Source: Candidatus Methylomirabilota bacterium
GTDB taxonomy: Bacteria > Methylomirabilota > Methylomirabilia > Rokubacteriales > DASRDR01
NCBI GenBank assembly: GCA_036005065.1
Contig: DASYQW010000119.1
Location: forward strand, 1-24,994
DNA: 24,994 bases
Direction of reading: 5' to 3'
A program made the position numbers and the translations under genes. Positions 147 through 24,281 of this stretch are shown in pieces. The notes beneath the pieces are model-generated. The model searched no databases, was not told where the DNA came from, and saw only the letters and a program-made list of their open reading frames with translations. Position 1 is the stretch's first letter. Each line of letters opens with the position of its first letter.

Positions 147-1034
147 CTACGCCCGCAGGACTGCGCTCGCGAGGCGGGCCGCCACCTCCCGGAGCGCCCG
201 GCCCGTCGGACTCTCGCCGTGCTCGAGGACGAACGGCCGGCCCCGGTCCGCCGCCCCGGCCAGTCGAGGATCGAACGGGATCTGGCCGAGGAAGGGAATC
301 CCGCAGTGCAGGGCCAGGCGCTCGCCGCCCGGGCCGTCGAAGAGGGCGCCGAGGCTGCCGCACTGGAGGCAGACGTAGCCGGCCATGTTCTCCACCAGGC
401 CGAGCAGCGGCGTGCCCGCCTCGCGCGCCAGGGCGATCGATCGGCGGACGACCAGGTGGGAGACCTCCGACGGAATGGTGACGACCACGGCGCCCGTGAG
501 GTCGGGCAGCAGGCCGGCCAGCGTCGGCAGCCGGTCGACGCCGGGCGGGAGATCGAGCAGCAGGACGTCCAGGGCGCCCCATGCCGTGTCGGTCAGGAAC
601 TCGCGCAGGGCGTTGGCCTCCATCGTCCCGCGCCAGGTGTGGGCGTCGGTCTGGGTGGGCGCGTTCCACACGACGGGCGTGTCGTCGGACGGGAGCAGGA
701 GGTCCATCGAGAGGACCCGGATCCCCTCGGCGGACCGCGCCGGCTCGACGCCCGCCTCGGTGACCCGGAGCGTCTGACCGCGCACGCCGAGCATCTTGGC
801 GATCGAGGGCCCATTCAGATCCGCGTCCAGCACGCCGACGGCGTACCCCTCGGCGGCCAGCGCCGCCCCGAGGTTCGCGGTCACCGAGCTCTTGCCGACG
901 CCGCCCTTGCCCGAGACGACGGCCACCGTGCGCCGGATGGCCGCCAGCCGGGCGCGGAGCCGGGCGTGTTGCTCGGCGATCTGGCCGACGATGTTCGAGC
1001 CGCCGTCCCCCTGGATGTCCCGATACCGCTTCAC
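147..1034 (-). CDS. apbC: Mrp/ApbC/NBP35-family Fe-S cluster carrier ATPase
   Basis: 295-aa ORF. Deviant Walker A motif VAVVSGKGGVGKSSVTANLGAAL, the ParA/MinD-like Mrp core, and a C-terminal CLQCG CxxC motif for the bridging Fe-S cluster. The start ATG overlaps the upstream stop (ATGA at 1031-1034). Confidence 0.85.
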   Translation of the reverse strand: MKRYRDIQGDGGSNIVGQIAEQHARLRARLAAIRRTVAVVSGKGGVGKSSVTANLGAALAAEGYAVGVLDADLNGPSIAKMLGVRGQTLRVTEAGVEPARSAEGIRVLSMDLLLPSDDTPVVWNAPTQTDAHTWRGTMEANALREFLTDTAWGALDVLLLDLPPGVDRLPTLAGLLPDLTGAVVVTIPSEVSHLVVRRSIALAREAGTPLLGLVENMAGYVCLQCGSLGALFDGPGGERLALHCGIPFLGQIPFDPRLAGAADRGRPFVLEHGESPTGRALREVAARLASAVLRA

Positions 1035-2035
1035 GGCGCCAGGCCCTCGTCGGAGGTGTCGAGCGGCGCCGCCGACGGGTCCTCGAGGTATGTCCGGAAG
1101 CGCTGCATCAGCTCATGGCCGAGGAAGTCGCCGGATCGGCCCGCCCGCTCGGTCTCGAAGTACCGGCGGATCCGGTCCAGCCGCTCCTGCGCCTCGGGGT
1201 TGAGGCTGACGATGCGGAGCCGCTCCTTGGCGGCGTCGAAGGCGTCGAAGGTGAGCTCGGCGAAGCCGAGCTCCCGGATGCGCTTCACGGCCTTCATCAT
1301 CGCCTGGTTACGGAACCGGGTGAGGAGCGGGGAGGTGATCACACGCGCGCCCAGGCGCCGGGCGCGCCGTTCGGCCGCCTTCCGGATGCCCTCGCGCACG
1401 AACTCGGGCGCGGTCTGGAGCCGCTCCCAGGCGTCGGGCGCCCACTCGACCGGCTCTTCCCGGCCGGCAACCCACACCCGCCGGAAGACTTCCGCGGTGA
1501 CGGCCGACTCGCCGCGTCGCCGGGCCTCGGCCTCCACGTCGCGCTTGAAGAGCAGCATGACGAAGTCCGCCATCATCGGCGGCGTCCTGCCGAGCCGTGC
1601 CAGCAGGAGGGTGTCGGCCTCGGGCGTCCACGGCAGGGGCTCGGCCGGCACCTCCGCCTCGGCCAACCCCTCCGCCTCCCGGATGAGTGCGGGGGTGATG
1701 CGGGAGGCGCCTTGCTCGAGGGCGAGCTCCTCGCAGATCCGCCGGGTGATGGGTCGCATGAACTCCGGGATCGAGGCCAGGAGCGCGTCGGCCTCGGACG
1801 TCCACGGCAGGGCGGGCGGGGCGGCCGTCCCGGGGATCGCGTAGCCGCCGGAGGCGGCCAGTCCCATCATCTCCTGCTTGTAGCGCGTCATCAGCTCGGG
1901 CGTGATGACCGGAATCCCCTCGGCGCGGGCACGCCGCTCGGCCAGCCGCCGCACCATGCCGCGCAGGAAGACCGGCGCACGCTGGAGGCGCTCCTCGGCC
2001 TCGGGGGTCCAGCGGACCTCGCCGGGCGGCCTCAC
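1031..2035 (-). CDS. Protein made of 4-5 tandem PCP_red-like repeats (protochlorophyllide reductase BchB C-terminal-like domain, PF08369-like)
   Basis: Taken from the 499-aa ORF 1031..2530. The N-terminal 165 aa of that ORF is a low-complexity Arg/Pro/Gly run overlapping the 2032..2460 gene in another frame. The real start is probably GTG at 2035..2033, overlapping the upstream TGA (GTGA). Repeats found: WTPEAEERLQRAPVFLRGMVRRLAERRARAEGIPVITPELM, LPWTSEADALLASIPEFMRPITRRICEELALEQGASRITPALI, LPWTPEADTLLLARLGRTPPMMADFVMLLFKRDVEAEARRRGESAVTAEV, WAPDAWERLQTAPEFVREGIRKAAERRARRLGARVITSPLL, LNPEAQERLDRIRRYFE. Confidence 0.7.
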   Translation of the reverse strand: MRPPGEVRWTPEAEERLQRAPVFLRGMVRRLAERRARAEGIPVITPELMTRYKQEMMGLAASGGYAIPGTAAPPALPWTSEADALLASIPEFMRPITRRICEELALEQGASRITPALIREAEGLAEAEVPAEPLPWTPEADTLLLARLGRTPPMMADFVMLLFKRDVEAEARRRGESAVTAEVFRRVWVAGREEPVEWAPDAWERLQTAPEFVREGIRKAAERRARRLGARVITSPLLTRFRNQAMMKAVKRIRELGFAELTFDAFDAAKERLRIVSLNPEAQERLDRIRRYFETERAGRSGDFLGHELMQRFRTYLEDPSAAPLDTSDEGLAP

Positions 2036-2460
2036 GGTGGAAGGTTCCAGCCCGCCCGCGCCACCATCACCGCCGTCGCGAGCGCGATCAGGGCGAAGAC
2101 GGTGGCACCGAGGGACATGGACACCTCGCCTCCCCCGGGCAACGGCACCGTCGGCACGCTCGGGGCACGCGCGACCCGCGCCACGCCGACGACCCGGACC
2201 AGGAGAAACACCGCCAGGAGGCGGGTGAACCAGAGGTAGCCCCATCCGTGCGGCCCGCGGGCGATGAGCCAGGGGAAGAGCACCACGAAGAGGAGGCCGA
2301 GCGTGAAGGCGAAGACGAGGAGCCAGCCCGGCCCCGGCCCGGTCGTGCCACGTGCCCCGACGCCGACCAGGACGAGGTACACGGCGCCGACGAGGTAGAT
2401 CACGCCGTAGATCCGGTACGCGAGGGCCGCCTGACGAAACTTCGCCTCGCGCATCGCCAC
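2032..2460 (-). CDS. Small integral membrane protein (about 4 TM helices), function unknown
   Basis: 142-aa ORF in a different frame from the overlapping 499-aa ORF. Contains four long hydrophobic stretches (IYGVIYLVGAVYLVLVGVGA, WLLVFAFTLGLLFVVLFPWLIA, YLWFTRLLAVFLLVRVVGVA, LGATVFALIALATAVMVA). Lies 6 nt after the radical-SAM stop and is coupled to the downstream gene. Confidence 0.6.
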   Translation of the reverse strand: MAMREAKFRQAALAYRIYGVIYLVGAVYLVLVGVGARGTTGPGPGWLLVFAFTLGLLFVVLFPWLIARGPHGWGYLWFTRLLAVFLLVRVVGVARVARAPSVPTVPLPGGGEVSMSLGATVFALIALATAVMVARAGWNLPP

Positions 2461-2466
2461 GCGGCC

Positions 2467-3831
2467 TCAGCCGGCCGGCGGGGCCGGCGCGGGGCGCGGG
2501 GTAAACGATCGGCCCGGGGTGACTCCCCACTGGGCCCGCACCTCGGTCATGAGGGCCGGCGTGACACGCCCCTGCCCCTGGCGCCGGGCGTACGCCTCGA
2601 CTGCCTGGACGACCATGGCCCGGGCGAAGGCGGGGATGGCGTCGAGACGCGCCCGGGCGGCCGGCTCCCAGGCGAGCGTGAACCGCGCCTCGAGGCCGAA
2701 CGTCTGGGCGGCGGGCAGGCGGAGAATCTCACCACCGTGCCGACCCGGCTGGTACGCGCAGGCCGGATCCTCGGCCAGGTAGTCGCCGGATGTCGCGTAG
2801 GCCCGGCACCGGCAGCCGCCGCAGATCACCTGGAACTCGCACGCTCCGCAGCGGCCGCCCAGCCGCGGCTCCCGGAGGTCCTGGAACACCCGGCCCCGCG
2901 CCCACAGCTCGGCGAAGCTCACCTGACGCAGGTTCCCGGCGCTGACGGGCATGTACGGACAGGGCGTGACGTCCCCCTCGGGGGTGATCCGGCAGTAGTA
3001 CTTGCCGGCCGGGCAGGACCCGTGCGCGTAGTTGGCGAGGAGCGGCGAGCGCGGGTCGAGTTCCCAGAGGATGCGGCGGAAGTGCGGGGCGCATTTGGCC
3101 CGGATGAGAAGGTCGCCGGCCCGGCCCGCCGGCACGCTCCACGGATCCTCCGCGCCCTCGACGGGGGAGGGCCGCGGCGTCGGCCCGGCGCCCACCCCCT
3201 GGACGCGCGCCAGGTAGCCGAGGATCGTCTCGTACTGGGCGGCGGTGATGTCGGTCAGCTGCTCGCCCCGACCCGTGCGGACGAGGAAGAAGAAGTTGAG
3301 GACACGCGCCTGAAGTTCCCGGGCCAGGTCGATCATGGCGGGGATCTCGCCCAGGTTCCAGTCGGTCACGCTCATGTGAATCGAGAAGTCGAGCCCCTCG
3401 GCCCGGAGCGCCTGGGTCGCTCGGACGGCGCCCTGCCAGGCGCCGGGCTGGTGCCGGAAGCGATCGTGCCGCGCGGGATCGATCGAGTCGAGGCTGAGCG
3501 ATGCCCCCTGCACCCCGTGCTCGCGGAGGCGCCGCGCCTGCTTCTCGCGCAGGAGCACGCCGTTGGTGCCGAGGACGACCGTGAATCCGTGGTCGCGCCC
3601 CCGGGCGGCGAGCTCGAAGATGTCCGGCCGGAGCAGCGGCTCGCCCCCGGTGAGGATCAGGAACACATCGGGGTTGACGCGGGCGATGTCGGTCATCACC
3701 CGGCGGCACTCCTCGGTCGAGAGCTCGCCGGACGCGCTCGCGCCCGGCGCCGCGCTCATGTAGCAGTGGGCGCAGAAGAGGTTGCAGCGCTGAGTGAGGT
3801 TCCAGGAAACGGCGTATGCCTTGTACGTCAT
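2467..3831 (-). CDS. Radical SAM/SPASM enzyme of the AhbD/NirJ (heme-modifying, PqqE-like) type with a C-terminal PCP_red-like domain fused
   Basis: 454-aa ORF. CxxxCxxC at aa 16-23 (CNLFCAHC). Motifs LSTEE, LILTGGEPLLRPD and VVLGTNG are typical of AhbD/NirJ-type radical SAM enzymes. A Cys-rich SPASM region follows (CPAGKYYC...CPYM...CGACEFQVICGGCRCRAY). The C-terminal ~70 aa, LAWEPAARARLDAIPAFARAMVVQAVEAYARRQGQGRVTPALM, is a PCP_red-type repeat. There is a GGAGG Shine-Dalgarno 5 nt upstream of the ATG. Confidence 0.85.
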   Translation of the reverse strand: MTYKAYAVSWNLTQRCNLFCAHCYMSAAPGASASGELSTEECRRVMTDIARVNPDVFLILTGGEPLLRPDIFELAARGRDHGFTVVLGTNGVLLREKQARRLREHGVQGASLSLDSIDPARHDRFRHQPGAWQGAVRATQALRAEGLDFSIHMSVTDWNLGEIPAMIDLARELQARVLNFFFLVRTGRGEQLTDITAAQYETILGYLARVQGVGAGPTPRPSPVEGAEDPWSVPAGRAGDLLIRAKCAPHFRRILWELDPRSPLLANYAHGSCPAGKYYCRITPEGDVTPCPYMPVSAGNLRQVSFAELWARGRVFQDLREPRLGGRCGACEFQVICGGCRCRAYATSGDYLAEDPACAYQPGRHGGEILRLPAAQTFGLEARFTLAWEPAARARLDAIPAFARAMVVQAVEAYARRQGQGRVTPALMTEVRAQWGVTPGRSFTPRPAPAPPAG

Positions 3832-3840
3832 TCGATCCTC

Positions 3841-3932
3841 CCCTCTCCCCCTGTGGGGGGGAGAGGGTTAGGGTGAGGGGTCCGGCGACGCGGCGAGACC
3901 CTCACCCCACCCTCTCCCTAGGAGGGAGAGGG
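3841..3932 (-). promoter_or_regulatory. Three consecutive GC-rich stem-loops in the 86-nt spacer between the Usp/PCP_red gene and the radical SAM gene; the first stem of the mRNA spans the Usp gene stop codon
   Basis: Plus-strand stem-loops: (1) 3841-3851 ccctctccccc with 3857-3867 gggggagaggg, a perfect 11-bp stem with loop tgtgg. (2) 3871-3882 gggtgaggggtc with 3897-3907 gaccctcaccc, about 11 bp with one bulge. (3) 3910-3919 ccctctccct with 3923-3932 agggagaggg, 9-10 bp; this arm covers the TAG at 3918-3920. All share a CCCTCTCCC/GGGAGAGGG core. There is no U-tract on the minus strand, so this is not a canonical intrinsic terminator. Confidence 0.4.
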
Positions 3933-5834
3933 AGTCTCGGGCTTTTTGTCGCGGATGTAGCCGGCGATGACCTCGTTCATCGTGTTGCGCGCGTGCCCGA
4001 TCCCCTCCTCGCACATCGCGAGATCGACGACCCCCACCTGCTTCGCGCGCGCGACCCGCTCGATCTCCTCTCGGGTCATGTCCCGCATGAACCCGGCCGG
4101 GACGCGGTTGAGGCGGGCCACCGCGTCTTCCGTCCAGGTGAACTCGCCGGACGGCGCCGCCACCTCTCGGAGGCTGGCCGGCTCGAACCGGGTGTTGGCG
4201 ATGAGGGTCTCCCAGCCGGCGCCCAGCTTGTCCCGGCCCACCGTCTCCTCGATCAGGGGGAAGGCCAGCTCCTTGGTGATCACCGGGATCCGGCGCGAGC
4301 GGGCGTACTTCTCGATTCGGGCCTTGGCCCGCCGGCGGAGGTAGGCGTCGGTGACCTCGCGAAGCCCCTCGCGGGCGTCGTTGGCCCACCGGACCGAGAC
4401 GCCGGGCATCACCTCTTCCTCGGCGATGCCGCCCTCGGCGGTGGCGATCGCCTCGACGACCTGCCGGTCGATGAGCGAGAACGCCTCCGGGCCGGCGCCG
4501 CAGACCGGGCACTTCACCACCGGGTTCGGGCCCTTGACCGCGTAACCGCAGATGGAACAGATGGCCGACACCGGCGCCTCCTCGGCCCGTAGCTTGGCGA
4601 CCGCCAGGTCCTCGGCCATGATCTGCATCTTCTCGGCCAGGCGGCTCGGCATGAAGATCGCCATCGCCTCGTCGATGACCTTGGAGGTGATGACCGTATG
4701 CCCCTGCTCGATGGCGTAGCGCAGGAGCGCCGTCCGGGCGACCCCGGCCACCTGGGCCGGGACCCGCTTCATGCGAGCCTCGGCCTCCTCCGTCCAGGAG
4801 ATGATCTCCTCGGCCTTCACGTCGAGCGGCGGGTAGAACCTCCCGCCGGTGAGGAGGACGTTGCAGGGGGCGAGCCGCAGGAGGTTCTCCGTGTTGGAGC
4901 CGAGGTCGGCCTCGTTCTCGTCCGAGTGGACCCCGACCCGCCCCAGGATCAGGAGCCAGGGGTGCTCCTTCCGGCAAAACTGGAGGAGCTTCTCGAAGCA
5001 CTTCCCGTCGAGCAGCGTGATCGCCAGGTCCACCTCCGCGTCCCGGGCCAGCTTCCGCCCGATCTCGAGGTGCGACTGGTAGATCTTGGCCAGCCCGGTG
5101 TCGATGATCTCCTCGTGGAGCTGCTCCTGCTCCTTGAAGCGGAACACCTTCGAGGCTTTCTCGGAAAGGACGCCGACGATGCCGTTGAACATCGCGTAGT
5201 GGAGATAGGGATCGTAGACGGCGACGGCGTGGAGCGCCCGGCCGAGCCTCTTGGCCAGGGCCACGCCGATCTGGAGTCCCCGGAATGACTGGGGACTCCC
5301 GTCGAGTCCGACCACGATGGCGCCCTGCTGGGCTTCCAGGGGATCGGGGTTGCGAACGACGAGCGTGTCGATCGGCACCCGCCGGACGAAGCGCTCCGTC
5401 ACCGAGCCGAGCTGGCTGTCCCTGACGGCGCCCAGCCCCAGCGCGCCGATCACCACCAGATCGTAGTCCCCGGCCCGGACGTCCTCGATGAGGGCCTTGT
5501 AATGCTTGCCGTCCATCATCCGCCGCTCGAACGGGAGCCCGGCCGCCTCCGCCTTCTTGCCTATCACGTCGAGGTACGAGTCGGAGATGAGCTGCAGGCC
5601 CATCGCGATCAGCGAATCGTGGATCTTCCGCTGGCGCTCGAGCTCCGTCTCATCCTTGTACTCGTCCGGCAGCGTGTACTCCATCTGCTTGAACCGGTAG
5701 TCGTGGAGCCGGGCCGCGTAGACGTGGCAGCCGACCAGCTCGGACCCGAACGCCTTCCCGAGCTCGACGGCCAGGTCGATGGCGCGGTTCGAGTAGTCCG
5801 AGTTGTCGACCGGCACGTAGATCTTCCGGAACAT
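3918..5834 (-). CDS. Multidomain protein: tandem universal stress protein (UspA) domains, PCP_red-like repeat, rubredoxin-like zinc ribbon, then two more PCP_red-like repeats
   Basis: 638-aa ORF. The N-terminal ~300 aa carry two Usp-like alpha/beta halves (IYVPVDNSDYSNRAIDLA...VVIGALG; IVVGLDGSPQSFRGLQIGVALA...HPWLLILGRVG). Then ISWTEEAEARMKRVPAQVAGVARTALLRYAIEQGHTVITSKVI, a PCP_red repeat. Then CSICGYAVKGPNPVVKCPVCG, a CxxC...CxxC zinc ribbon. Then VRWANDAREGLREVTDAYLRRRAKARIEKYARSRRIPVITKEL and FTWTEDAVARLNRVPAGFMRDMTREEIERVARAKQVGVVDL. GGAGG Shine-Dalgarno 5 nt upstream. Confidence 0.8.
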   Translation of the reverse strand: MFRKIYVPVDNSDYSNRAIDLAVELGKAFGSELVGCHVYAARLHDYRFKQMEYTLPDEYKDETELERQRKIHDSLIAMGLQLISDSYLDVIGKKAEAAGLPFERRMMDGKHYKALIEDVRAGDYDLVVIGALGLGAVRDSQLGSVTERFVRRVPIDTLVVRNPDPLEAQQGAIVVGLDGSPQSFRGLQIGVALAKRLGRALHAVAVYDPYLHYAMFNGIVGVLSEKASKVFRFKEQEQLHEEIIDTGLAKIYQSHLEIGRKLARDAEVDLAITLLDGKCFEKLLQFCRKEHPWLLILGRVGVHSDENEADLGSNTENLLRLAPCNVLLTGGRFYPPLDVKAEEIISWTEEAEARMKRVPAQVAGVARTALLRYAIEQGHTVITSKVIDEAMAIFMPSRLAEKMQIMAEDLAVAKLRAEEAPVSAICSICGYAVKGPNPVVKCPVCGAGPEAFSLIDRQVVEAIATAEGGIAEEEVMPGVSVRWANDAREGLREVTDAYLRRRAKARIEKYARSRRIPVITKELAFPLIEETVGRDKLGAGWETLIANTRFEPASLREVAAPSGEFTWTEDAVARLNRVPAGFMRDMTREEIERVARAKQVGVVDLAMCEEGIGHARNTMNEVIAGYIRDKKPETPSPS

Positions 5835-5950: not shown

Positions 5951-6322
5951 TCAGCATCCGAAGCGGGCGTCGGTCGGGTCGACGAAATTGTCGAGACTCA
6001 GCCAGAGGCTCTTGCTGTACCGGAAAAACCAGAGCGGGAAGAGGACGGCGAACGTGCCCCAGATCGCGAGCTGCTGCCCGACGGTGAGGCCGAGCCAGGC
6101 GCCCAGCCCGAAGTAACCGAGGAGGGCGATCACCACCGTCGCGCCGTAGTTCAGGTAGATGGCCCCCACGAAGTAGCCCGGCTCGCGCTCGAAGACGAGC
6201 CCGCAGCCAGGGCAGCGCGACCGCATGCGAAACCATCCCTCGAACATGCCGCCGGCGCCACAGCGAGGGCACTGCAGACGGAGGCCCCGACCCAGCAGCC
6301 GCCGTGACCGTGCGAGGTCCAT
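5951..6322 (-). CDS. DUF983-family zinc-ribbon membrane protein (commonly encoded next to cytochrome oxidase genes)
   Basis: 123 aa. An N-terminal CPRCG...CPGCG zinc ribbon is followed by two TM helices (YFVGAIYLNYGATVVIALLGYFGLGAWL; LAIWGTFAVLFPLWFF). This is the typical DUF983 layout. Confidence 0.7.
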   Translation of the reverse strand: MDLARSRRLLGRGLRLQCPRCGAGGMFEGWFRMRSRCPGCGLVFEREPGYFVGAIYLNYGATVVIALLGYFGLGAWLGLTVGQQLAIWGTFAVLFPLWFFRYSKSLWLSLDNFVDPTDARFGC

Positions 6323-6347
6323 CTGCCCACCTCTGGCTGGGGCACAG

Positions 6348-6683
6348 TCAGTGTTTCGCCGGGGCTTCGACCTTCGCCGACTCGGCCGTCTTGTGGTCCA
6401 CGGCGCGACTGTCAGGCATGATGATCAGCACGAGCAGCGTCCCGATGGCGAGCGGGGTCAGAGCGATGTAGGCCAGGGTCCGGGTCTCGAAGCGGAGATG
6501 CATGAAGTACATCGCCACCAGGGCCGCCTTCGAGAGCGCGAGCGCGACCAAGAGCACCCACTTGGTGGGCGGCGGCAGGAAATAGGCGCCGACCTCCAGC
6601 ACCGTCAGTACCGCGAGCCAGTAGAAGACGGCCATGTAGTTCGGGCTCTTGTGGGCGTGTGCCTCAGCCATCGCGTCCCCCAT
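6348..6683 (-). CDS. ctaF: Cytochrome c oxidase subunit IV (prokaryotic COX4_pro/CtaF type)
   Basis: 111 aa. NYMAVFYWLAVLTVLEV...ALSKAALVAMYFMHL matches the bacterial subunit IV consensus (KA.LV..YFMHL). The start is either the first ATG or the ATG 4 codons later (MAEAHAH). Confidence 0.7.
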   Translation of the reverse strand: MGDAMAEAHAHKSPNYMAVFYWLAVLTVLEVGAYFLPPPTKWVLLVALALSKAALVAMYFMHLRFETRTLAYIALTPLAIGTLLVLIIMPDSRAVDHKTAESAKVEAPAKH

Positions 6684-6692
6684 CCCCGGATC

Positions 6693-7310
6693 TCAGAGCA
6701 GGTAGATGAGCGTGAACACCATGATCCACACGAGGTCCACGAAATGCCAGTAGAGTCCGACGATCTCGGTGATCATGTAGTTGTAGCGCTGGTCCTGGAA
6801 GCGGGAGATCGCCGCCCGGACCACCGCCAGGTAGATCACGCCGCCGGTCACGTGGAGCCCGTGGAAGCCCGTGATGATGTAGAAGCTGGCCCCGAAGAGC
6901 GCGGCTCCCCAGGGATTCCCGAAGACTCGCATCCCCTGTTCGATCAGGTGCGTCCACTCGTACCCCTGCATTCCGAGGAAGAGCAGCCCCCCGCCCATGG
7001 TCCATAGCAGGCGGCTCCGCGCCCGCCGCATGTCCCCGCGCTGGATCCACTCGAGCGCCTTGACCATCGTGACGCTCGAGCAGATCAGGATGAAGGTCAT
7101 GACGGCCGGAATGTTGATCCCGAAGTGGACGGCGGGCGGCGGCCAATCCGCGCTGGAAGCCCGGACCGCCCCGTAGGAGGCCAGCAGCACGCCGAACCCC
7201 ACGGCGTCTCCCGCCAGGAAGATCCACATTCCGAGCTTCCCCCAGCTCTCGGGGGTGAGCGGCGACTCGGCCGGCTCGACGGCCGGGTGAGGCAGCGCGG
7301 CTTCAGTCAC
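6693..7310 (-). CDS. ctaE: Cytochrome c oxidase subunit III (5-TM short form)
   Basis: 205 aa. Carries WGKLGMWIFLAGDAVGFG, FYIITGFHGLHVTGGVIYL and LYWHFVDLVWIMVF, the hallmarks of heme-copper oxidase subunit III. GTG start at 7310 with an AAGGAGA Shine-Dalgarno 7 nt upstream. Confidence 0.85.
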   Translation of the reverse strand: MTEAALPHPAVEPAESPLTPESWGKLGMWIFLAGDAVGFGVLLASYGAVRASSADWPPPAVHFGINIPAVMTFILICSSVTMVKALEWIQRGDMRRARSRLLWTMGGGLLFLGMQGYEWTHLIEQGMRVFGNPWGAALFGASFYIITGFHGLHVTGGVIYLAVVRAAISRFQDQRYNYMITEIVGLYWHFVDLVWIMVFTLIYLL

Positions 7311-7345
7311 GGTCTGGTCTCCTTGTAGGCGTCATCCGGCGACCC

Positions 7346-8032
7346 TCACACGAGATAGACGAGGATGTAGAGAATCGGCCACAGAGCCACCACGAAGTGC
7401 CAGTACATCGCGCAGGTCGCCAGGCTCACGTACTCCCGTGGCGTGTAGCGGCCGCGCGCCGCCCACGCCAGGACGATCAGGAGCCAGGTCAGGGCCCCCA
7501 GGACGTGCGCGCCGTGGGTTCCGATCAGCGTGTAGAACGTGCCGCCGTAGATTCCCGAAGACGCGGTCAGGCCGAACCCGACCAGGCGGATCCACTCGGC
7601 GCCCTGCACCGCCAGGAACAGCGCGCCGAGGCCGGCGGTTCGGGCGAGGCCGCGGACCAGGCCGCGCTGGTCGCCCTGGCGGACGGCGCGGAGCGCGCGA
7701 GCCAGCGTATAGCTCGAGCCGATCAGGACCAGCGTGTTGACGGCCGTGACCCCCACCGGAAGTCGCGGCTGACCGGGAGGCGGCCACACGCTGGCGCCGA
7801 GGCGCAGGACCAGGAAAGCGGCCACCAGCCCGCCGAACAGGACCGTCTCTCCCGTGAGCAGCATCAGCATCCCGAGGCGGGCGTTCGAGTACGGGGGATA
7901 CGCCTCCGGCCCGGATCCGCCGTCGTCCCCGTTCCCGCGGGGCGGCGGGACCGGCGGCTGCCAGTCGCGGCCCAGCTCGCGGCTCGGGGGCCCGCCGACA
8001 CGCCGCTGGAGGTCGGGCTCGATGATCGGCAT
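7346..8032 (-). CDS. Second cytochrome c oxidase subunit III-family protein (paralog with a Pro/Gly-rich N-terminal extension)
   Basis: 228 aa. Carries GMLMLLTGETVLFGGLVAAF, FYTLIGTHGAHVLGALTWL and AMYWHFVVALWPILYILVYL, the same family signature as ctaE but divergent. The N-terminal ~50 aa are a proline-rich low-complexity run. Confidence 0.75.
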   Translation of the reverse strand: MPIIEPDLQRRVGGPPSRELGRDWQPPVPPPRGNGDDGGSGPEAYPPYSNARLGMLMLLTGETVLFGGLVAAFLVLRLGASVWPPPGQPRLPVGVTAVNTLVLIGSSYTLARALRAVRQGDQRGLVRGLARTAGLGALFLAVQGAEWIRLVGFGLTASSGIYGGTFYTLIGTHGAHVLGALTWLLIVLAWAARGRYTPREYVSLATCAMYWHFVVALWPILYILVYLV

Positions 8033-8039
8033 CGGTCTC

Positions 8040-8177
8040 TCAGTTGCGCACCCAGATCACGACGATGGAGACGATCACGAGGAACACGATCAAGGCGACG
8101 AGCAGCCGCGCGGTCCGGCGGTTCCGCTCGGCCAGAGTCGGCTCCGTCGCCTGCCCGCGGTCGATCAGCGCGGGCAT
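8040..8177 (-). CDS. 45-aa single-TM protein (not in the ORF track); possible small oxidase-associated subunit
   Basis: Hand-translated: ATG 8177..8175 to TGA 8042..8040 gives MPALIDRGQATEPTLAERNRRTARLLVALIVFLVIVSIVVIWVRN, a charged N-terminus followed by one clean TM helix. The stop lies 7 nt before the ctaE-like start, so it is coupled into the operon. It may be a chance ORF. Confidence 0.35.
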   Translation of the reverse strand: MPALIDRGQATEPTLAERNRRTARLLVALIVFLVIVSIVVIWVRN

Positions 8178-8213
8178 CGCTCACCCCGTTGGCCCGGCCG
8201 AGCACGCAGAGCG

Positions 8214-8376
8214 GCGACGGGGATCGGCACGGCCCTGAACTCACGGCCGGGCCGAGACCCGAGCAGCCCTAGGACGCAGGCCGGAGCCGGCCCGAGGCGT
8301 ATGCCGCATACGTTGAGGGCTGGCGACGGCCGAGGACGACGGGCTGCGACGGGTATCGGCACGGCCGTCAGCTCAC
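8214..8376. repeat. 31-nt imperfect direct repeat (27/31 identical) flanking a 132-nt spacer that contains a small palindrome; the second copy overlaps the ctaB stop codon
   Basis: 8214-8244 gcgacggggatcggcacggccctgaactcac versus 8346-8376 gcgacgggtatcggcacggccgtcagctcac. A palindrome, cgtatg-ccg-catacg, lies at 8298-8312. The repeat also shows in the spurious ORF translations as a repeated AVPIPVAA / RRATGIGTA. Confidence 0.6.
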
Positions 8377-9282
8377 CTTGTCGAGCGCCATCAGCACCAG
8401 CAGTATCGGCAAATACAGCACGGAGGCCAGGAGCAGCCGCCGGGCCGCCGGCGGCGAGGGCGCGACCGCCTGCGCCATGCCACAGGCCAGGAAGAGCCCT
8501 CCCAGGGTCAGAGCGCCGAAGAAGTACACCGCGCCCGCGAGCCCGATCAGCGTCGGCAGGAGCCCCACCGCGAGGAGGGCGAGACACCCCGCCACGATCT
8601 GGCGCTCGGTGCTCGCGCCGTCGGGGTCGACGACGGGCAGGACGCGGATGCCGGCCCGCGCGTAGTCCTCACGGTAGAGCCGGGCGATGGCCAGCGTGTG
8701 CGGGAGCTGCCACAGGAACAGGATCGCGAACAGCACCGCCGCGCCCGGCCCCAGGTCGCCGCGCGCCGCCACCCAGCCCGTCACGGGGGGCAGGGCGCCC
8801 GGGACAGCGCCGATCACCATGCACAGCGGCGTGACGCGCTTGAGCGGCGTGTAGGCGAAGAGGTAGAGGCCCACCGTCGCTACCGTCACCAGGACGCTGG
8901 CAGGCCCGACAGTCAGGGCAAGGTAGGCGAGTCCCGCCGCCGTCGTCAGCGTCCCGAAGACGAGCGCCTCCCCCGGCTGCAGGCGACCGTCGGGCAGGGG
9001 TCGGCCACGCGTGCGCTGCATCCGCGAATCGACGTCCCGCTCGAGGAACTGATTGAGCGCCAGCGTGCCGGCCGCCGCCAGTGCGGTCCCGAGCAGCGTG
9101 TGGGCGAGGCGGACGTAGTCCTGGCCGCCGACCGAGCCCAGGTAATAGCCGACGAACGTCGTCACCAGGACCATGAGGACGACCCGGGGCTTCGTCAACG
9201 TCACGAAGTCGGCGAGTCGCCGGCGGGCGCCGGCGAGAGCCACGGCCGGCGCCCCCGGCAGCGTCCCCGTCCGCGAGATCAT
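8368..9282 (-). CDS. ctaB: Protoheme IX farnesyltransferase (heme O synthase)
   Basis: Taken from the 451-aa ORF 8368..9723. The first ~147 aa of that ORF are Arg/Gly/Ala low-complexity and overlap ctaA in another frame. The real start is ATG 9282..9280 (MISRTG...), overlapping the ctaA TGA (ATGA). UbiA-family motifs are present: LTKPRVV, NQFLERDVDSRMQRTRGRPLP, YTPLKRVTPL. Confidence 0.85.
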   Translation of the reverse strand: MISRTGTLPGAPAVALAGARRRLADFVTLTKPRVVLMVLVTTFVGYYLGSVGGQDYVRLAHTLLGTALAAAGTLALNQFLERDVDSRMQRTRGRPLPDGRLQPGEALVFGTLTTAAGLAYLALTVGPASVLVTVATVGLYLFAYTPLKRVTPLCMVIGAVPGALPPVTGWVAARGDLGPGAAVLFAILFLWQLPHTLAIARLYREDYARAGIRVLPVVDPDGASTERQIVAGCLALLAVGLLPTLIGLAGAVYFFGALTLGGLFLACGMAQAVAPSPPAARRLLLASVLYLPILLVLMALDKVS

Positions 9283-10223
9283 GCCGCCACCCCCTGCGCG
9301 CCCGGCCCCGCCGGCAGCTGCGCCCGGGCCTCGGCCGCTTCGGCCCCGCCGAGCCGCCCGAGCGTGAGCACGAGCATGACCGCCCCGCCGAGGAGCAGAG
9401 CGGCGGTGGCCCGGTGGGCGACCGGCAGCACCAGGCCGCCGAGGACACCGCCGGGCACGGCGAACCCCGTGAAGCGCGCGACGTAGGCGCCGAGCCCGAG
9501 CCCGAGCTGAAGCGCGAGGAGGCTCAGCAGGGTCCCGGCCGGCCAGGCGAGCGCCGCCCGCGCCCGGTGCCGAGCGAGCACGCGTAGCGCGAGGAGCGCC
9601 ACGGCGAGCGTCGCCACGACGGCGCCGCCCAGGTGCCAGTCGATCCGGCCGGCGTGCGTCGTCAGGGCACCCAGCACGATCTGGAGATAGAGCGCGGCGG
9701 TCGCCGCCACCGCGAGCCCCCACAAGCGGCGGGCCTCGGCCGCCGGGAGGGGCGCCACCGGCGCTCGCCAGGCCGGGGCGGTGAAGACGGCGAGCGCCAC
9801 CGTCAGGGCGAAGAAGGCCTGAGCCAGGCAGCCGTGGACGATCGCCAGCGTATCCCGCAGGAGGAGCACCCGCAGCCCGCCGAGCAGCCCCTGCCCGCCC
9901 ACCAGGACGACGGCCGCCAGCCCGAGCAGCCGGAGCCGGCCCTGCCGGTCGCCGAACCAGAGCACGGTCGCCAGGCCGAGCGTCAGGAACCCGACCAGTG
10001 CCCCCAGGAGACGATGACTGTGCTCGTAGAGGACGCCCCCGACCATCTGCGACCAGGGATAGAGAAACATGTTGTGGCCGAACGTGGTCGGCCAGTCGGG
10101 AACCGCCAGCGCGGCCCCGGTGTTCGTCACGAGCCCGCCGGCCACGATCAGCACGAGCGTCGCGCCGACGGTGACGAGCGCCAGGCGGTGCGCCCAGCGC
10201 ATGGGCGCCGACGCCGTCGTCAC
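9279..10223 (-). CDS. ctaA: Heme A synthase (CtaA/COX15 family)
   Basis: 314 aa, about 8 TM helices. Conserved His residues sit in the TM helices (YEHSHRLLG, IVHGCLAQAFF, TTHAG). GAAGGA Shine-Dalgarno upstream. Its position between ctaD and ctaB supports the call. Confidence 0.8.
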   Translation of the reverse strand: MTTASAPMRWAHRLALVTVGATLVLIVAGGLVTNTGAALAVPDWPTTFGHNMFLYPWSQMVGGVLYEHSHRLLGALVGFLTLGLATVLWFGDRQGRLRLLGLAAVVLVGGQGLLGGLRVLLLRDTLAIVHGCLAQAFFALTVALAVFTAPAWRAPVAPLPAAEARRLWGLAVAATAALYLQIVLGALTTHAGRIDWHLGGAVVATLAVALLALRVLARHRARAALAWPAGTLLSLLALQLGLGLGAYVARFTGFAVPGGVLGGLVLPVAHRATAALLLGGAVMLVLTLGRLGGAEAAEARAQLPAGPGAQGVAA

Positions 10224-10244
10224 GGCAATTCCTTCACGGAACTC

Positions 10245-12002
10245 TCAGTGCGCGCGCGAGGACGCGCCCGCTGTGGTGAGCCGTCGCGTCTGGGGCAGGT
10301 AGTCCTCGGGTACCTCCGGCGAGCTGTACTCGTAGGGCCCGCGGTAGACGACGGGCAGGGCAGCGCCCCAGTTCCCGTGGGGTGGAGGCGACGGCGCCGT
10401 CCACTCCAGCGTGTTGGCGCTCCAGGGATTCAGGGGCGCCTTCGGCCCTTTGAAGAGGCTCCAGAGGAAATTGATCACGAACGGGATCTGGCCCAGGCCG
10501 AGCAGGAAGGCGCTGACGCTGATGAAGATGTTCCAGGGCTCGGTCCACGTCAGGAACTCGTACTGCATCGGGTTGTAGATCCGGCGCATCATGCCGCCCA
10601 CCCCGAGGATGTGCATCGGGAAGAAGACGAAGTTGAAGAACACGAACGTCGGCCAGAAATGGAGCTTCCCGAGCGTGTCGTTCATCATCCGGCCGAACAT
10701 CTTCGGGAACCAGTAGTAGATGCCGGCGAACGCCCCGAAGATGGAGCCGCCGAAGACCACGTAGTGGATGTGGGCCACGATGAAGTAGGTGTCCTGGATG
10801 AAGATGTCCACCGGCGTGGAGGCCATGAAGATCCCGCTGAGCCCCCCGATCACGAACATCGACACGAAGGCCAGCCCGTTCAGCATGGGAACGGTGAACC
10901 GGATGTTCCCGCCCCACAGGGTCCCCAGCCAGTTGAACGTCTTGATGGCCGAGGGGACGGCGATGACCATCGTCGTGATCATGAAGGAGGTCCCGAGGGC
11001 CGGGTTCATGCCGCTCACGAACATGTGGTGGCCGTACACGACCCAGGAGAGGAAGGCGATGCCGATGATGGAGAAGGCCATCGCGCGGTAGCCGAAGATC
11101 GGCTTCCGGGCGAAGACCGAGAGCACGTCGGAGGCGATCCCCATCGCCGGCAGGATCAGGATGTAGACCTCCGGATGACCGAAGAACCAGAAGAGATGCT
11201 GCCAGAGCAGGGGCTCCCCGCCCCCGGCGGGATTGAACCAGTTGGTTCCGAAGACGCGGTCGAAGAGCAGCATGGCGACAGCCGACGTCAGGACCGGGAG
11301 GGCGAGCAGGAGGAGGATGGCCGTGATGAACATCGCCCAGATGACCAGCGGCATCCGGAACATCGTCATGCCGGGCGCGCGCATGTTCACGATCGTCGTG
11401 ATGTAGTTGATGGAGCCCATCATGGAGGAGACGCCGAGGACGAACAGGCTGATGCACCAGAGGTTCTGGCCCCAGTTGACGCCGGAGTACTGGGGGATGG
11501 CCGAGAGCGGGGCGTACGAGGTCCACCCGGCGGCGGCGTGCCCGCCCTCCACGAAGAAGCCGGCCAGCATCAGGAGCCCGGCCAGGGCCCCCGCCCAGAA
11601 GGAGAGCATGTTCAGCCGGGGGAACGCCATGTCCCGCGCCCCGACCATCAGGGGGATCAGGAAGTTCCCGAACGCCCCCGCCAGGATCGGCATGATCACG
11701 AAGAAGATCATGATGGTGGCGTGCATCGTGAACATCATGTTGTAGACGGCGGGCGAGATGACCCCCTCGCTGTCGGGCCAGATGAGCCGCCCGACCAGGG
11801 GCACCGGGGTCTCCGGCCACGCCAGCTGCCACCGGAGGAAGAGCGCCAGCAGGCCGCCGATGACCATCATGAAGAGGCCCAGGAAGAGGAACTGGCGGGC
11901 GATCATCTTGTGGTCGGTCGAGAAGATGTAGGTCCGCACGAAGCCCAGCTCGTGGGCATGCACGTCGTGCGCGCTGGCCGTCGCGGCTGCTGGATGCGCC
12001 AT
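10245..12002 (-). CDS. ctaD: Cytochrome c oxidase (aa3-type heme-copper oxidase) subunit I
   Basis: 585 aa. Carries WFFGHPEVYILILP, GMDVDTRAYF-like regions, HHMF and YVVAHFHYV-type motifs (IVAHIHYVVFGGSIFG). The subunit I signature is unmistakable. Confidence 0.95.
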   Translation of the reverse strand: MAHPAAATASAHDVHAHELGFVRTYIFSTDHKMIARQFLFLGLFMMVIGGLLALFLRWQLAWPETPVPLVGRLIWPDSEGVISPAVYNMMFTMHATIMIFFVIMPILAGAFGNFLIPLMVGARDMAFPRLNMLSFWAGALAGLLMLAGFFVEGGHAAAGWTSYAPLSAIPQYSGVNWGQNLWCISLFVLGVSSMMGSINYITTIVNMRAPGMTMFRMPLVIWAMFITAILLLLALPVLTSAVAMLLFDRVFGTNWFNPAGGGEPLLWQHLFWFFGHPEVYILILPAMGIASDVLSVFARKPIFGYRAMAFSIIGIAFLSWVVYGHHMFVSGMNPALGTSFMITTMVIAVPSAIKTFNWLGTLWGGNIRFTVPMLNGLAFVSMFVIGGLSGIFMASTPVDIFIQDTYFIVAHIHYVVFGGSIFGAFAGIYYWFPKMFGRMMNDTLGKLHFWPTFVFFNFVFFPMHILGVGGMMRRIYNPMQYEFLTWTEPWNIFISVSAFLLGLGQIPFVINFLWSLFKGPKAPLNPWSANTLEWTAPSPPPHGNWGAALPVVYRGPYEYSSPEVPEDYLPQTRRLTTAGASSRAH

Positions 12003-12082
12003 CGTCCTTTATCCCCCTCGAACGGTTGCCCGCGCGAGTGCGCCAGAGTCGGCGGTTTCGGGCGAATCGGGTGGAGGCCGCA

Positions 12083-12739
12083 CTAGGAGGGCCACTTCTC
12101 CTTGAGCCACTGCTGGTACTCTTCCGCGGTGTGGACGAACAGGAAGCCCTTCATCCCCGAGTGCCCGAACCCGCAGAGCTCGGCACACGGGATCTCGTAT
12201 TTGCCGGGCTTCGTCACCTCGACCCACTGGTGGATCACGCGGCCCGGCACGGCGTCCTGCTTGAACCGGGCCTGGGGGATGAACACGCTGTGGATCACGT
12301 CCCGCGAGGTCAGGTGCAGGATGACCGGCTTGCCGACCGGGACGTGGACCTCGTTATCGAAGGTCTGGTCGTCCTCGGTCTCGAACTTCCCGTCGGGCCC
12401 CGGGTAGGTCACCTCCCAGTTGAACTGCTTGGCCGTGATCCGGATGTGGATGTCGGACTCGGGAAGCCGGCTCTTGATCCGGGTCCAGCCGGGAACCGAG
12501 AGGAAGGTGAGGATCACCAGGATGAGCGCGGGGACGATCGTCCAGACGATCTCGAGGGTGGCGTTCCCGTGGGTGTAGGTCGCCCGCCGTCCCTCCCGGT
12601 GGCGGTAGGCCACCAGGAAGATGATCATGGCGCCCGCCACCAGGATGAACGTCACGCCGGTGATGTAGTAGATGAGGTAGAAGAGCCAGTCGATTTCGGC
12701 TCCATAGGTGGAGATGTTCTCCGGCAGCCACCTCATCAT
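12083..12739 (-). CDS. ctaC: Cytochrome c oxidase subunit II (CuA centre, no fused cytochrome c domain)
   Basis: 218 aa. Two N-terminal TM helices, then a cupredoxin fold with HSVFIPQ...CAELCGFGHSGM, which gives the CuA ligands H, C, C, H, M. The protein ends right after the CuA domain, so this is aa3-type rather than caa3-type. Confidence 0.9.
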   Translation of the reverse strand: MMRWLPENISTYGAEIDWLFYLIYYITGVTFILVAGAMIIFLVAYRHREGRRATYTHGNATLEIVWTIVPALILVILTFLSVPGWTRIKSRLPESDIHIRITAKQFNWEVTYPGPDGKFETEDDQTFDNEVHVPVGKPVILHLTSRDVIHSVFIPQARFKQDAVPGRVIHQWVEVTKPGKYEIPCAELCGFGHSGMKGFLFVHTAEEYQQWLKEKWPS

Positions 12740-13607: not shown

Positions 13608-13662
13608 GGGAACTCCTTCCTCCTCCGTGAACGATCGGTTGAGCCCCGGCCGCGGCTGGCCC

Positions 13663-15918: not shown

Positions 15919-15926
15919 GACGCGAC

Positions 15927-16787: not shown

Positions 16788-16790
16788 GGC

Positions 16791-21051: not shown

Positions 21052-21062
21052 GGACCGGCTGG

Positions 21063-21563: not shown

Positions 21564-21668
21564 CGCGGGTCCGCTCGGCCCTGGGGCGACTTGCCGGGGG
21601 GCTCCGCCCTCTGCTACCATCGCCGGCACAGGCACGCGTCCGGTACTCGCCTCTCCCGCGCGAGCCAC

Positions 21669-24258: not shown

Positions 24259-24281
24259 GCACTGGACCGGACGCCGGCCCG

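Follow-up and report, generated by a model that had tools for sequence, protein, structure and literature searches.

Gene content of the locus

The window, that is, the whole stretch of 24,994 nucleotides of a Candidatus Methylomirabilota bacterium analyzed here (contig DASYQW010000119.1), contains on its minus strand a complete gene (3918..5834) coding for a protein of 638 amino acids. The ORF has an ATG start, with a GGAGG Shine-Dalgarno sequence 6 nt 5' of it, and terminates in a TAG stop codon; it is confirmed to be a genuine, intact gene. From the N- to the C-terminus, its product displays two Usp domains, a PCP_red repeat, a Cys4 knuckle, and two further PCP_red repeats, and is referred to below as the Usp-PCP_red protein. 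TM-like segments are absent throughout its 638 residues, from which it is predicted to be soluble and cytoplasmic. AlphaFold models of the protein have pLDDT values of 84.5 and 85; the C-terminal part with the PCP_red repeats and the Cys4 knuckle was modeled separately from the whole protein, because Foldseek searches with the whole model returned Usp matches only.

Downstream on the same strand lies a conserved partner gene for an AhbD/NirJ2-like radical SAM (rSAM)/SPASM protein with a C-terminal PCP_red domain (2467..3831, minus). It is followed by genes for a small membrane protein with about four TM segments and no Pfam match, which is conserved in the rokubacterial loci (2032..2460, minus), a protein whose only domains are four PCP_red repeats, with a GTG start that overlaps the preceding gene's stop codon (1031..2035, minus), and an Mrp/NBP35-type Fe-S carrier ATPase (147..1034, minus). 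Upstream and co-directional is an aa3-type oxidase block coding for CoxII, CoxI, CtaA, CtaB, two CoxIII proteins, CoxIV, and a DUF983 protein (5951..12739, minus). Further upstream is a bd-like block (12903..18731, minus), with genes for a bd-like CydA homologue (16791-18731), a dihaem cytochrome c (15927-16787), a trihaem cytochrome c plus EB_dh protein (13663-15918), and a CarboxypepD_reg protein (12903-13679), all on the minus strand. The gene set conserved with Usp-PCP_red, namely the AhbD/NirJ2-like rSAM-PCP_red, Mrp/NBP35, and PCP_red-only proteins, hence adjoins haem-oxidase operons: aa3 with CtaA and CtaB, the haem O/A synthases, and bd-like CydA with c-type cytochromes and an EB_dh domain of the haem-b type. 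Both the conserved set and the terminal-oxidase operons had been missed in the preliminary description of this DNA.

A tandem Usp module with duplicated histidine-bearing inserts

Pfam recovers the Usp domain (PF00582) in two stretches with an E-value of 1.2e-38 (133.3 bits, the cut-off being 24). Usp domain 1 (residues 1-161; 5352..5834, minus) contains D10 and S12 and the ATP motif G130-x2-G-x9-G-S (nt 5403-5447), while domain 2 (residues ~172-335; 4830..5321, minus) contains D178-G-S and G298-x2-G-x-H303-x8-G-S (nt 4896-4943). On the question raised earlier of whether the halves keep the signature G-x2-G-x9-G(S/T), the first half matches it exactly (130-144), and the second keeps the glycines but has a spacer of x10 rather than x9 (298-313). 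Both halves have invariant glycine motifs and DxS/DGS elements. Taken together, sequence and model point to a tandem Usp module of the ATP type, which is predicted to bind nucleotide. In structural comparisons, the best match of the N-terminal half is TTHA0350, a tandem Usp with bound ATP (PDB 3AB8; Foldseek E 5e-17, target TM-score 0.85). As in the tandem Usps TTHA0350, Rv2623, and UspE, there are two Usp alpha/beta domains per chain and the G-x2-G-x9-G-S signature; in contrast to them, the protein has about 70 extra residues distributed over two inserts and a 300-residue PCP_red/Cys4 extension, and the identity is only ~20%.

The inserts, which the preliminary description overlooked, constitute a distinctive element of the module. 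Helical insert 1 (residues ~37-98; 5541..5726, minus) is family-specific and contains H37, H44, R47, F48, E52, R69, and H72, all with a conservation of 95% or more. Helical insert 2 (residues ~205-268; 5031..5222, minus) contains D208, P209, H212, F216, Q236, H240, and D245. The two align without gaps and have the common pattern H-x3-F-x6-L-x12-Q-x3-H, such that each Usp half bears one copy of a duplicated insert with two near-invariant histidines. Across 166 sequences, H37, H44, H72, H212, H240, and H303 are at least 98% conserved. A PDB profile search with the histidine-bearing insert returned noise only, without any relative.

PCP_red repeats and a rubrerythrin-type Cys4 knuckle

The domain make-up first proposed from the letters, two Usp halves, three PCP_red repeats and a zinc knuckle, is upheld by Pfam, which assigns the C-terminal half to three PCP_red stretches and RUBY_RBDX and not to an unrelated family. 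The PCP_red assignment (PF08369, 7.9e-24, three stretches, above the cut-off) holds both by profile score and by structural agreement with the PCP_red domains already solved. With borders set by a custom-built PCP_red HMM, repeat 1 comprises residues 344-395 (4650..4805, minus; conserved W347 and G378-H379), repeat 2 residues 480-532 (4239..4397, minus; conserved Y-x-R-R-R-A-K-A-R-I-E-K), and repeat 3 residues 564-616 (3987..4145, minus; conserved R-V-P-x-G-F-M-R); the three copies have diverged, each with invariant residues of its own. The domain is otherwise found in BchB/ChlB, Asr4154 (2L09), and 2KRU, from which the present protein differs in its three diverged copies and in their fusion to Usp rather than to a nitrogenase-like subunit. 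Consistent with this, the DPOR BchB/ChlB model TIGR01278 scores only 55 bits against its threshold of 490 and matches over model positions 458-509 alone.

Between repeats 1 and 2 lies the Cys4 knuckle of the rubrerythrin type (CSICG-x11-CPVC, C426/C429/C442/C445; 4500..4559, minus), which is recognized by the Pfam model RUBY_RBDX (PF21349) at 1.3e-07 and 31.4 bits against a cut-off of 26.5; residues 426-452 correspond to model positions 3-29, so that 27 residues cover 27 model positions. The spacing had been given as CxxC-x14-CxxC and is corrected here to C426-x2-C429-x12-C442-x2-C445. The CxxCG...CPxC knuckles and their spacing are those of the rubredoxin-like domain of rubrerythrin, but the di-iron four-helix-bundle domain of that protein is lacking; the knuckle region alone matches the rubrerythrin and nigerythrin models, at scores far below their thresholds (NF045767, 16.8 bits against 200; NF045783, 21.4 against 340). 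In the 81 loci examined, the paired CxxC motifs are kept in 80, the lone exception ending at a contig edge, and the order PCP_red-Cys4-PCP_red-PCP_red is retained wherever the ORF is complete. A stand-alone ferredoxin was considered as a substitute for the knuckle in loci L090 and L091 and was ruled out, as the orthologues there carry the knuckle themselves.

A widespread family and a genuine fusion

The protein is the Methylomirabilota/Rokubacteria orthologue of a large uncharacterized family. Clustering at 50% identity divides this family into 349 clusters (E<1e-30) carrying one to six PCP_red repeats; many of its members are without the Cys4 knuckle, and 27 representatives are Usp-only, without PCP_red. 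Its 120 best database relatives share the trio of Pfam domains and have lengths of 583-685 residues. A scan for relatives with a nine-sequence alignment, using one genome per species, confirmed at least 572 related stretches, and genomes of hundreds of species, belonging to 10 phyla or more, have the full-length architecture. The search for orthologous fusions elsewhere, suggested at the outset, is thereby answered in the affirmative. The earlier remark that the architecture had not been described fares less uniformly: no paper on it was found in our literature search, but it is common in sequence databases and already domain-annotated there. That search, which covered the PCP_red family, its solved structures, and Usp proteins in relation to haem, oxidases, or radical SAM, found no functional paper on the family.

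These data also bear on whether the fusion could be an artefact, a frameshift or an assembly join having turned two genes, one for Usp and one for PCP_red, into one. The alignment runs unbroken over the Usp/PCP_red junction in database clusters that number in the thousands and in no fewer than 10 phyla, and the end-to-end architecture shared by the 120 best relatives and the stretches of the species-genome scan refutes the artefact, to which we assign a practically negligible probability. Support for it was not found in the material examined, save that the orthologue of L054 has an in-frame TGA before PCP_red-3, which indicates that errors of such a kind do occur in MAGs.

Conserved gene neighborhoods

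Across 81 loci, the recurrent neighbors are Mrp (64), CoxIII (51), rSAM (47), CoxIV (43), CtaB (40), CoxI (39), and CtaA (34); the sample is phylogenetically clumped, with ~27 Poribacteria, ~20 Rokubacteria, and 13 Acidobacteriota. Mrp, the commonest neighbor, is often immediately adjacent, at 30-110 bp in nine loci (L023, L024, L028, L035, L053, L059, L063, L077, and L080). The association with the downstream radical SAM gene, to which the preliminary description had linked the protein, is borne out: the 47 loci, which span several phyla, have the AhbD/NirJ2-like rSAM-SPASM-PCP_red gene at a distance of no more than 8 kb, and it is co-operonic with Usp-PCP_red in distant lineages. Fusions of Usp with rSAM of the Rosetta-stone type were searched for and none was found, the only hit being a weak PNPOx_N-like N-terminus in P0174. 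In the de novo clustering of neighboring ORFs, which was noisy on account of antisense shadow ORFs in high-GC DNA, only the plus-strand clusters were used.

The linkage to oxidases takes several forms. In 26 of 91 loci, including 13 of 13 acidobacterial ones, a bd-like gene, a cytochrome c, and a cytochrome c-EB_dh gene lie directly upstream, and in several loci the cytochrome c-EB_dh match stops 18-77 bp before the Usp gene. Two further lineages have a single operon in the order bd-like, cytochrome c, cytochrome c, cytochrome c/EB_dh, rSAM-PCP_red, Usp-PCP_red, Mrp, and a PCP_red protein. In L089-91, the downstream PCP_red-only proteins bear an N-terminal Cys4 ribbon as well. Minimal members of the family, with two Usp domains and one PCP_red, adjoin Cyt_bd_oxida_I together with an ABC-ATPase-PCP_red fusion, cytochromes c, ResB/CcsA, and HemA. 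Some of these minimal members are near oxidase or cytochrome genes with no rSAM on the contig.

The partner radical SAM protein (2467-3831) has the radical-SAM core and a full SPASM domain. Its top NCBIfam scores, 304.7 bits for NirJ2 and 299.6 for AhbD (TIGR04545), fall below the equivalog cut-offs of 500. It is thus like AhbD and NirJ in its core, its SPASM domain, and its best-scoring models, but differs from them in its C-terminal PCP_red, its sub-cut-off scores, and its setting in terminal-oxidase operons instead of ahbABC. AhbD is the O2-independent coprohaem decarboxylase that converts coprohaem to haem (PMC13564367).

Potential role in haem-cofactor maturation

The gene set, with its haem-type radical SAM, Fe-S carrier, and oxidase operons, suggests that the Usp-PCP_red protein probably helps make or load haem cofactors. 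With moderate confidence, we propose that it acts as a nucleotide-dependent accessory of haem-cofactor maturation for the adjoining oxidases, in the capacity of an adaptor, chaperone, or regulator subunit. The PCP_red modules would dock it to the PCP_red-tagged rSAM and further partners, or may themselves hold a tetrapyrrole. The Cys4 site would be a structural or redox metal center, its sequence fitting Zn and Fe alike, and the Usp module could gate the process by the energy or cofactor state through ATP and perhaps the histidine sites. Several points count against this reading, among them the phylogenetic clumping of the 81 loci. The partner rSAM stays below the equivalog thresholds for AhbD and NirJ2, and in Poribacteria it is 3.7-6 kb off or beyond the flank. 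Usp proteins are frequently generic regulators, and the PCP_red fold is similar to generic helical lids. In BchB, the substrate-contacting helix (398-420) is outside PCP_red, which lies C-terminal to it. To our knowledge, no function has been established for PCP_red in any protein; the DPOR papers give no role for the C-terminal domain of BchB, and our literature search found no paper assigning tetrapyrrole binding to PCP_red.

One could go further and view Usp-PCP_red, the PCP_red-tagged rSAM, Mrp, and the PCP_red-only proteins as a dedicated, hitherto unrecognized maturation machine. It would produce or insert haem, perhaps in a modified form, for the bd-like (OR-N-type) oxidases linked to cytochrome c and, in certain lineages, for aa3. 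The histidine pairs of the inserts would then be haem or metal ligands, and PCP_red a general docking or hand-off module of tetrapyrrole enzymes, in common with DPOR. We offer this extension tentatively and consider it somewhat unlikely. HemW, a cytoplasmic haem chaperone or handler, would be comparable in the proposed role, the hand-over of haem or a precursor to respiratory enzymes, and in the haem-oxidase gene context. This likeness is a functional analogy only: HemW has no sequence or fold relationship to the Usp-PCP_red protein, for which haem binding is but a proposal.

Two other explanations emphasize single modules of the protein. One is that it is purely an energy-state regulator, with Usp sensing ATP or another nucleotide and PCP_red anchoring it, on the cytoplasmic side, at respiratory complexes or at the factors that assemble them. 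It would thereby tune the activity or assembly of the oxidase without touching its cofactor. TeaD and the Usp domain of KdpD act on neighboring systems in such a regulatory manner. The invariant glycine and DxS/DGS elements, the ATP-bound tandem Usp as the top structural match, the Usp-only representatives, and the minimal members beside oxidase or cytochrome genes on contigs without rSAM are all compatible with it. However, it leaves unexplained why PCP_red is also borne, in these neighborhoods, by a haem-type rSAM, by BchB, and by an ABC ATPase, the tight linkage to Mrp, and the family-specific histidine sites, and we regard it as unlikely. The other holds that the protein is a redox or Fe-S partner of the rSAM, in which the Cys4 knuckle would be a rubredoxin-like Fe center giving electrons to the rSAM or taking them from it, or in which the protein, together with Mrp, would load the three [4Fe-4S] clusters of the rSAM, PCP_red again serving for docking. 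The above-cut-off match to the rubrerythrin rubredoxin-like domain, the strict conservation of the knuckle across phyla, the frequent direct adjacency of Mrp, and the Cys4 ribbon on the PCP_red-only proteins of L089-91 would fit this. Yet, as so many members are without it, the knuckle cannot be the core function; Zn and Fe are indistinguishable by sequence, and the invariant Usp histidines are left without a role. We therefore judge this explanation distinctly unlikely.

If true, the haem-maturation reading would provide a first function for PCP_red, whose structure has been determined twice in structural genomics work and which every DPOR BchB contains, and would set apart a distinctive subclass of universal stress proteins rich in histidine. 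An AhbD-like radical-SAM enzyme would gain accessory factors, and the bd-like (OR-N-type) oxidases, known from Nitrospirota, Acidobacteriota, Rokubacteria, and others, would become more accessible to experiment. Abundant lineages of soil, of sediment, and of sponge symbionts widely carry the gene set.

A palindrome over the stop codon

The last codons of the Usp-PCP_red gene, its TAG stop, and the spacer to the rSAM gene are covered by a nested GGGAGAGGG/GGGTGAGGG palindrome (3832..3935, minus), in agreement with the earlier claim that the stop codon is within an RNA stem. The 126-nt fold is very stable (MFE -75.4 kcal/mol, z = -4.8). Of the relatives checked, only L002, the closest one, shares the palindrome of the window; the 12 others (L001, L003, L007-L010, L013, L016, L021, L054, L058, and L069) lack it. 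An Rfam scan matched it to no family, and a terminator scan was negative, there being no U-tract. The stem had been taken as a sign of regulated read-through into the rSAM gene, for which the stability of a hairpin right over the stop codon might speak. Against it stand the confinement of the palindrome, among the loci checked, to the window and L002, the lack of a U-tract, terminator, or Rfam family and, above all, the frame: the rSAM start is offset by 2, and a ribosome reading past the TAG would meet an in-frame TGA after 29 codons. Since the rSAM gene is in another reading frame, translational read-through is refuted, and we hold the mechanism to be very improbable. The 3' arm of the palindrome holds the Shine-Dalgarno sequence of the rSAM gene, which translational coupling, as opposed to read-through, could exploit, with translation of the upstream gene potentially unmasking it.

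A tandem Usp–PCP_red protein with family-specific inserts

The Usp–PCP_red fusion protein is encoded by a single ORF of 638 aa (3918-5834, minus strand), starting with an ATG at 5834 that is preceded by a Shine-Dalgarno GGAGG 6 nt 5' of it, and no TM-like segments were found in the protein. The architecture proposed in the preliminary description, namely tandem Usp halves joined to three PCP_red-type repeats, is borne out by Pfam, with Usp (1.2e-38) matching in two stretches and PCP_red (7.9e-24) in three; a purpose-built HMM places the repeats at residues 344-395, 480-532 and 564-616. The Cys4 knuckle described there is likewise present, RUBY_RBDX (rubrerythrin rubredoxin-like) matching residues 426-452 with 31.4 bits (cut-off 26.5), but a scripted motif search reads it as C426-x2-C429-x12-C442-x2-C445, that is, with a spacing of x12 rather than x14. 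The same kind of search finds the canonical ATP motif G-x2-G-x9-G-S exactly in Usp half 1, but G-x2-G-x10-G-S in half 2. In NCBIfam, the match to the BchB models is confined to their final ~50 positions and that to the rubrerythrin and nigerythrin models to the knuckle, all far below the equivalog cut-offs. The domains are all known, and their combination is already domain-annotated in databases; a literature search found no paper on the Usp–PCP_red family, the His-rich Usp subclass or any PCP_red function, nor one linking the family to bd-like and aa3 oxidase operons.

AlphaFold models of the full-length protein and of its C-terminal part are both confident (pLDDT 84.5 and 85, respectively). 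The N-terminal half is a tandem Usp with ATP-bound TTHA0350 as its top structural match (target TM-score 0.85), and the repeat profile matches the stand-alone PCP_red NMR structures 2L09 and 2KRU as well as BchB/ChlB residues ~473-522. Each repeat has a signature of its own that is invariant across phyla: repeat 1 shows G-H379, repeat 2 Y-x-RRRAKARIEK and repeat 3 RVPxGFMR. In contrast to ordinary Usps, each Usp half bears a family-specific helical insert. These house six histidines (H37, H44, H72, H212, H240 and H303) that are at least 98% conserved across 166 family sequences, along with companions that are at least 95% conserved in the same set (R47, F48, E52, L55-P56, R69, D208-P209, F216, Q236 and I244-D245). 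One insert can be aligned gap-free with the other, and H-x3-F-x6-L-x12-Q-x3-H is common to both. In a profile search of the PDB the insert yielded no relatives. These features point to a specific, putative ligand or metal site absent from ordinary Usps.

Phyletic spread and reality of the fusion

The best 120 database relatives range from 583 to 685 aa, contain the same three Pfam families and are listed by their sources as universal stress proteins from Methylomirabilota/Rokubacteria. A 50%-identity representative library yielded 349 clusters at E<1e-30; among the best 150 representatives, a tandem Usp of ~335 aa is followed by one to six PCP_red domains, with the Cys4 knuckle present or absent, 27 of those scored for architecture being Usp-only. 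In a survey covering one genome per species, at least 572 related stretches were confirmed, and full-length versions, among the matches listed, come from Methylomirabilota, Poribacteria, Latescibacterota, Tectomicrobia/Entotheonella, Acidobacteriota, Rhodothermales, Calditrichia, Planctomycetota, TA06 and Krumholzibacteriia. Seeding a search from a myxobacterial sequence brings in further members from Alpha-, Beta- and Gammaproteobacteria and from Magnetococcales. The CxxC...CxxC knuckle is kept in 80 of 81 loci examined (the exception is truncated by the contig end), and the order PCP-Cys4-PCP-PCP is kept in those with a complete ORF. Orthologous fusions thus exist in many phyla, and an artefactual join, which the preliminary description had entertained, is ruled out by the recurrence of the same architecture in the best 120 relatives and across phyla.

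Two individual members deserve mention. A Methylomirabilota orthologue (L054) has an in-frame TGA at ~4580-4590, where its relatives have Arg, just before PCP_red-3; the frame is intact afterwards, and the TGA reflects either a sequencing error in the MAG or a nonsense mutation of recent origin. Another family protein (P0174) is extended N-terminally, and the extension weakly resembles PNPOx_N (residues ~134-184, E 6e-05, below cut-off); several haem-binding and haem-degrading proteins share the PNPOx_N-type split-barrel fold.

Association with haem-oxidase operons

Across phyla, Usp–PCP_red forms a gene set with a PCP_red-bearing radical-SAM enzyme (rSAM–PCP_red), Mrp and PCP_red-only proteins, and this set is attached to haem-oxidase operons. 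In the window, all genes from 18731 down to 147 lie on the minus strand, and no terminator-like sites were found in the spacers of this run. It begins with an operon (13663-18731) whose first gene encodes a bd-like CydA homologue that matches Pfam Cyt_bd_oxida_I, has ~12-14 hydrophobic segments and lacks a CxxCH motif; a dihaem cytochrome c comes next, and then a trihaem cytochrome c fused to an EB_dh haem-b domain. CarboxypepD_reg, CoxII, CoxI, CtaA, CtaB, two CoxIII, CoxIV and DUF983 genes follow, and then the fusion gene, an AhbD/NirJ2-like rSAM–SPASM–PCP_red (2467-3831), a small membrane protein, a four-PCP_red protein and Mrp/NBP35, the last four with 6-nt gaps or overlaps.

In a synteny sample of 81 related loci with 8-kb flanks, tblastn detected Mrp in 64, CoxIII in 51, rSAM in 47, CoxIV in 43, CtaB in 40, CoxI in 39 and CtaA in 34. 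In a second pass, the bd-like gene, cytochrome c and cytochrome c–EB_dh lay directly upstream of Usp–PCP_red in 26 of 91 loci, including all 13 acidobacterial ones as well as Rhodothermales, Calditrichia, Latescibacterota and Methylomirabilis, and in several loci the cytochrome c–EB_dh match ends 18-77 bp before the Usp gene. Two further lineages carry a single operon that runs bd-like, cytochrome c, cytochrome c, cytochrome c/EB_dh, rSAM–PCP_red, small ORFs, Usp–PCP_red–Cys4, Mrp and a Cys4-ribbon+PCP_red protein. Minimal members (two Usp and one PCP_red) adjoin a Cyt_bd_oxida_I gene with an ABC-ATPase–PCP_red fusion, cytochromes c, ResB/CcsA and HemA, or ResB with a radical-SAM gene. The absence of haem-c motifs from the bd-like protein and the cytochromes c flanking it would fit the OR-N class of uncharacterised bd-type oxidases defined by Murali et al. 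(bioRxiv 10.1101/2021.01.16.426971); a radical-SAM or Usp partner comes up neither in that study nor in a comparison of Nitrospirales (PMC12342949).

Several neighbours are noteworthy in themselves. The four-PCP_red protein (1031-2035, minus strand; 334 aa) has no other domain and starts at a GTG that overlaps the stop codon of the membrane-protein gene before it; in the related locus L001 a Cation_efflux (CDF) gene takes its place. The ABC-transporter ATPase with a C-terminal PCP_red (L083 8183-9163, L084 5388-6368) lies directly 3' of the minimal Usp–PCP_red gene and downstream of Cyt_bd_oxida_I. Proteins of 156-160 aa encoded directly after Mrp (L089 11807-12277; L090 and L091 11847-12326), in which a Cys4 ribbon (CVxC...CPAC) at the N-terminus is combined with a PCP_red at the C-terminus, are a second, independent pairing of these domains. 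Directly upstream of Usp–PCP_red, two unrelated lineages share a small conserved protein of 112-134 aa (L089 8577-8915, L090 8591-8995) with no Pfam match and the C-terminus ...Y(V/I)xxR(L/M)xYI(Y/Q)DR(M/L)xxIY. In 27 of 91 loci (including L001, L002, L004, L009, L019 and L087), the CarboxypepD_reg protein (12903-13679, minus strand), with an N-terminal hydrophobic segment, is encoded beside Usp–PCP_red or the oxidase block. Within that block, two separate CoxIII paralogues occur (6693-7310 and 7346-8032), and the longest CtaB ORF (451 aa) overlaps that of CtaA by ~445 nt (8368-9723 and 9279-10223, minus strand); its true start is probably much further downstream, since the UbiA domain begins only at residue 185. 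The plus-strand genes at 19441-24989, which encode flotillin/Band-7 (SPFH) and, after it, components of a branched-chain amino-acid ABC transporter, appear unrelated to the fusion.

A possible role in haem-cofactor maturation

We propose, as the most likely reading, that the fusion protein acts as a nucleotide-dependent accessory in maturing the haem cofactors of the adjoining oxidases. The neighbouring rSAM probably belongs to the AhbD/NirJ2 group, though it scores below the equivalog cut-offs; AhbD is an O2-independent coprohaem decarboxylase (PMC13564367). PCP_red is carried by three unrelated enzyme types in tetrapyrrole/haem contexts (BchB, rSAM and ABC ATPase) and also stands alone, a distribution in favour of one common function in docking or hand-off. 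That PCP_red binds a tetrapyrrole is putative, because the protochlorophyllide-contacting helix of BchB (398-420; PMC12022308) falls outside it.

One rival reading is that the protein is a pure ATP-sensing regulator of the oxidases. Another is that it serves as a redox or Fe-S partner of rSAM, working with Mrp. For the Cys4 knuckle, a structural Zn and a rubredoxin-like Fe centre are both conceivable; many family members do without it, which rules it out as the core function. The boldest reading, in which the system is a dedicated haem-maturation machine serving OR-N-type oxidases and the Usp inserts bind haem or metal, we consider rather unlikely.

A lineage-specific palindrome in the spacer

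The spacer between the fusion and rSAM genes is a very stable nested palindrome of GGGAGAGGG and GGGTGAGGG units, formed by six copies of GGGWGAGGG at 3841-3932, against 1.6 expected by chance; no further copy of the motif lies in the window. A stop codon buried in this stem had been taken as a hint of regulated read-through into rSAM. That proposal is rejected: rSAM starts in a different frame from the fusion (offset 2), read-through past its TAG meets a TGA 29 codons on, and the palindrome is common to the window and its closest relative (L002) only, being absent from twelve other relatives checked. No U-tract was found at the palindrome, nor does it have an Rfam family; a REP-like insertion specific to its lineage is the most fitting reading. 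The Shine-Dalgarno of rSAM lies inside its 3' arm, and translational coupling of the two genes is therefore conceivable from the sequence.
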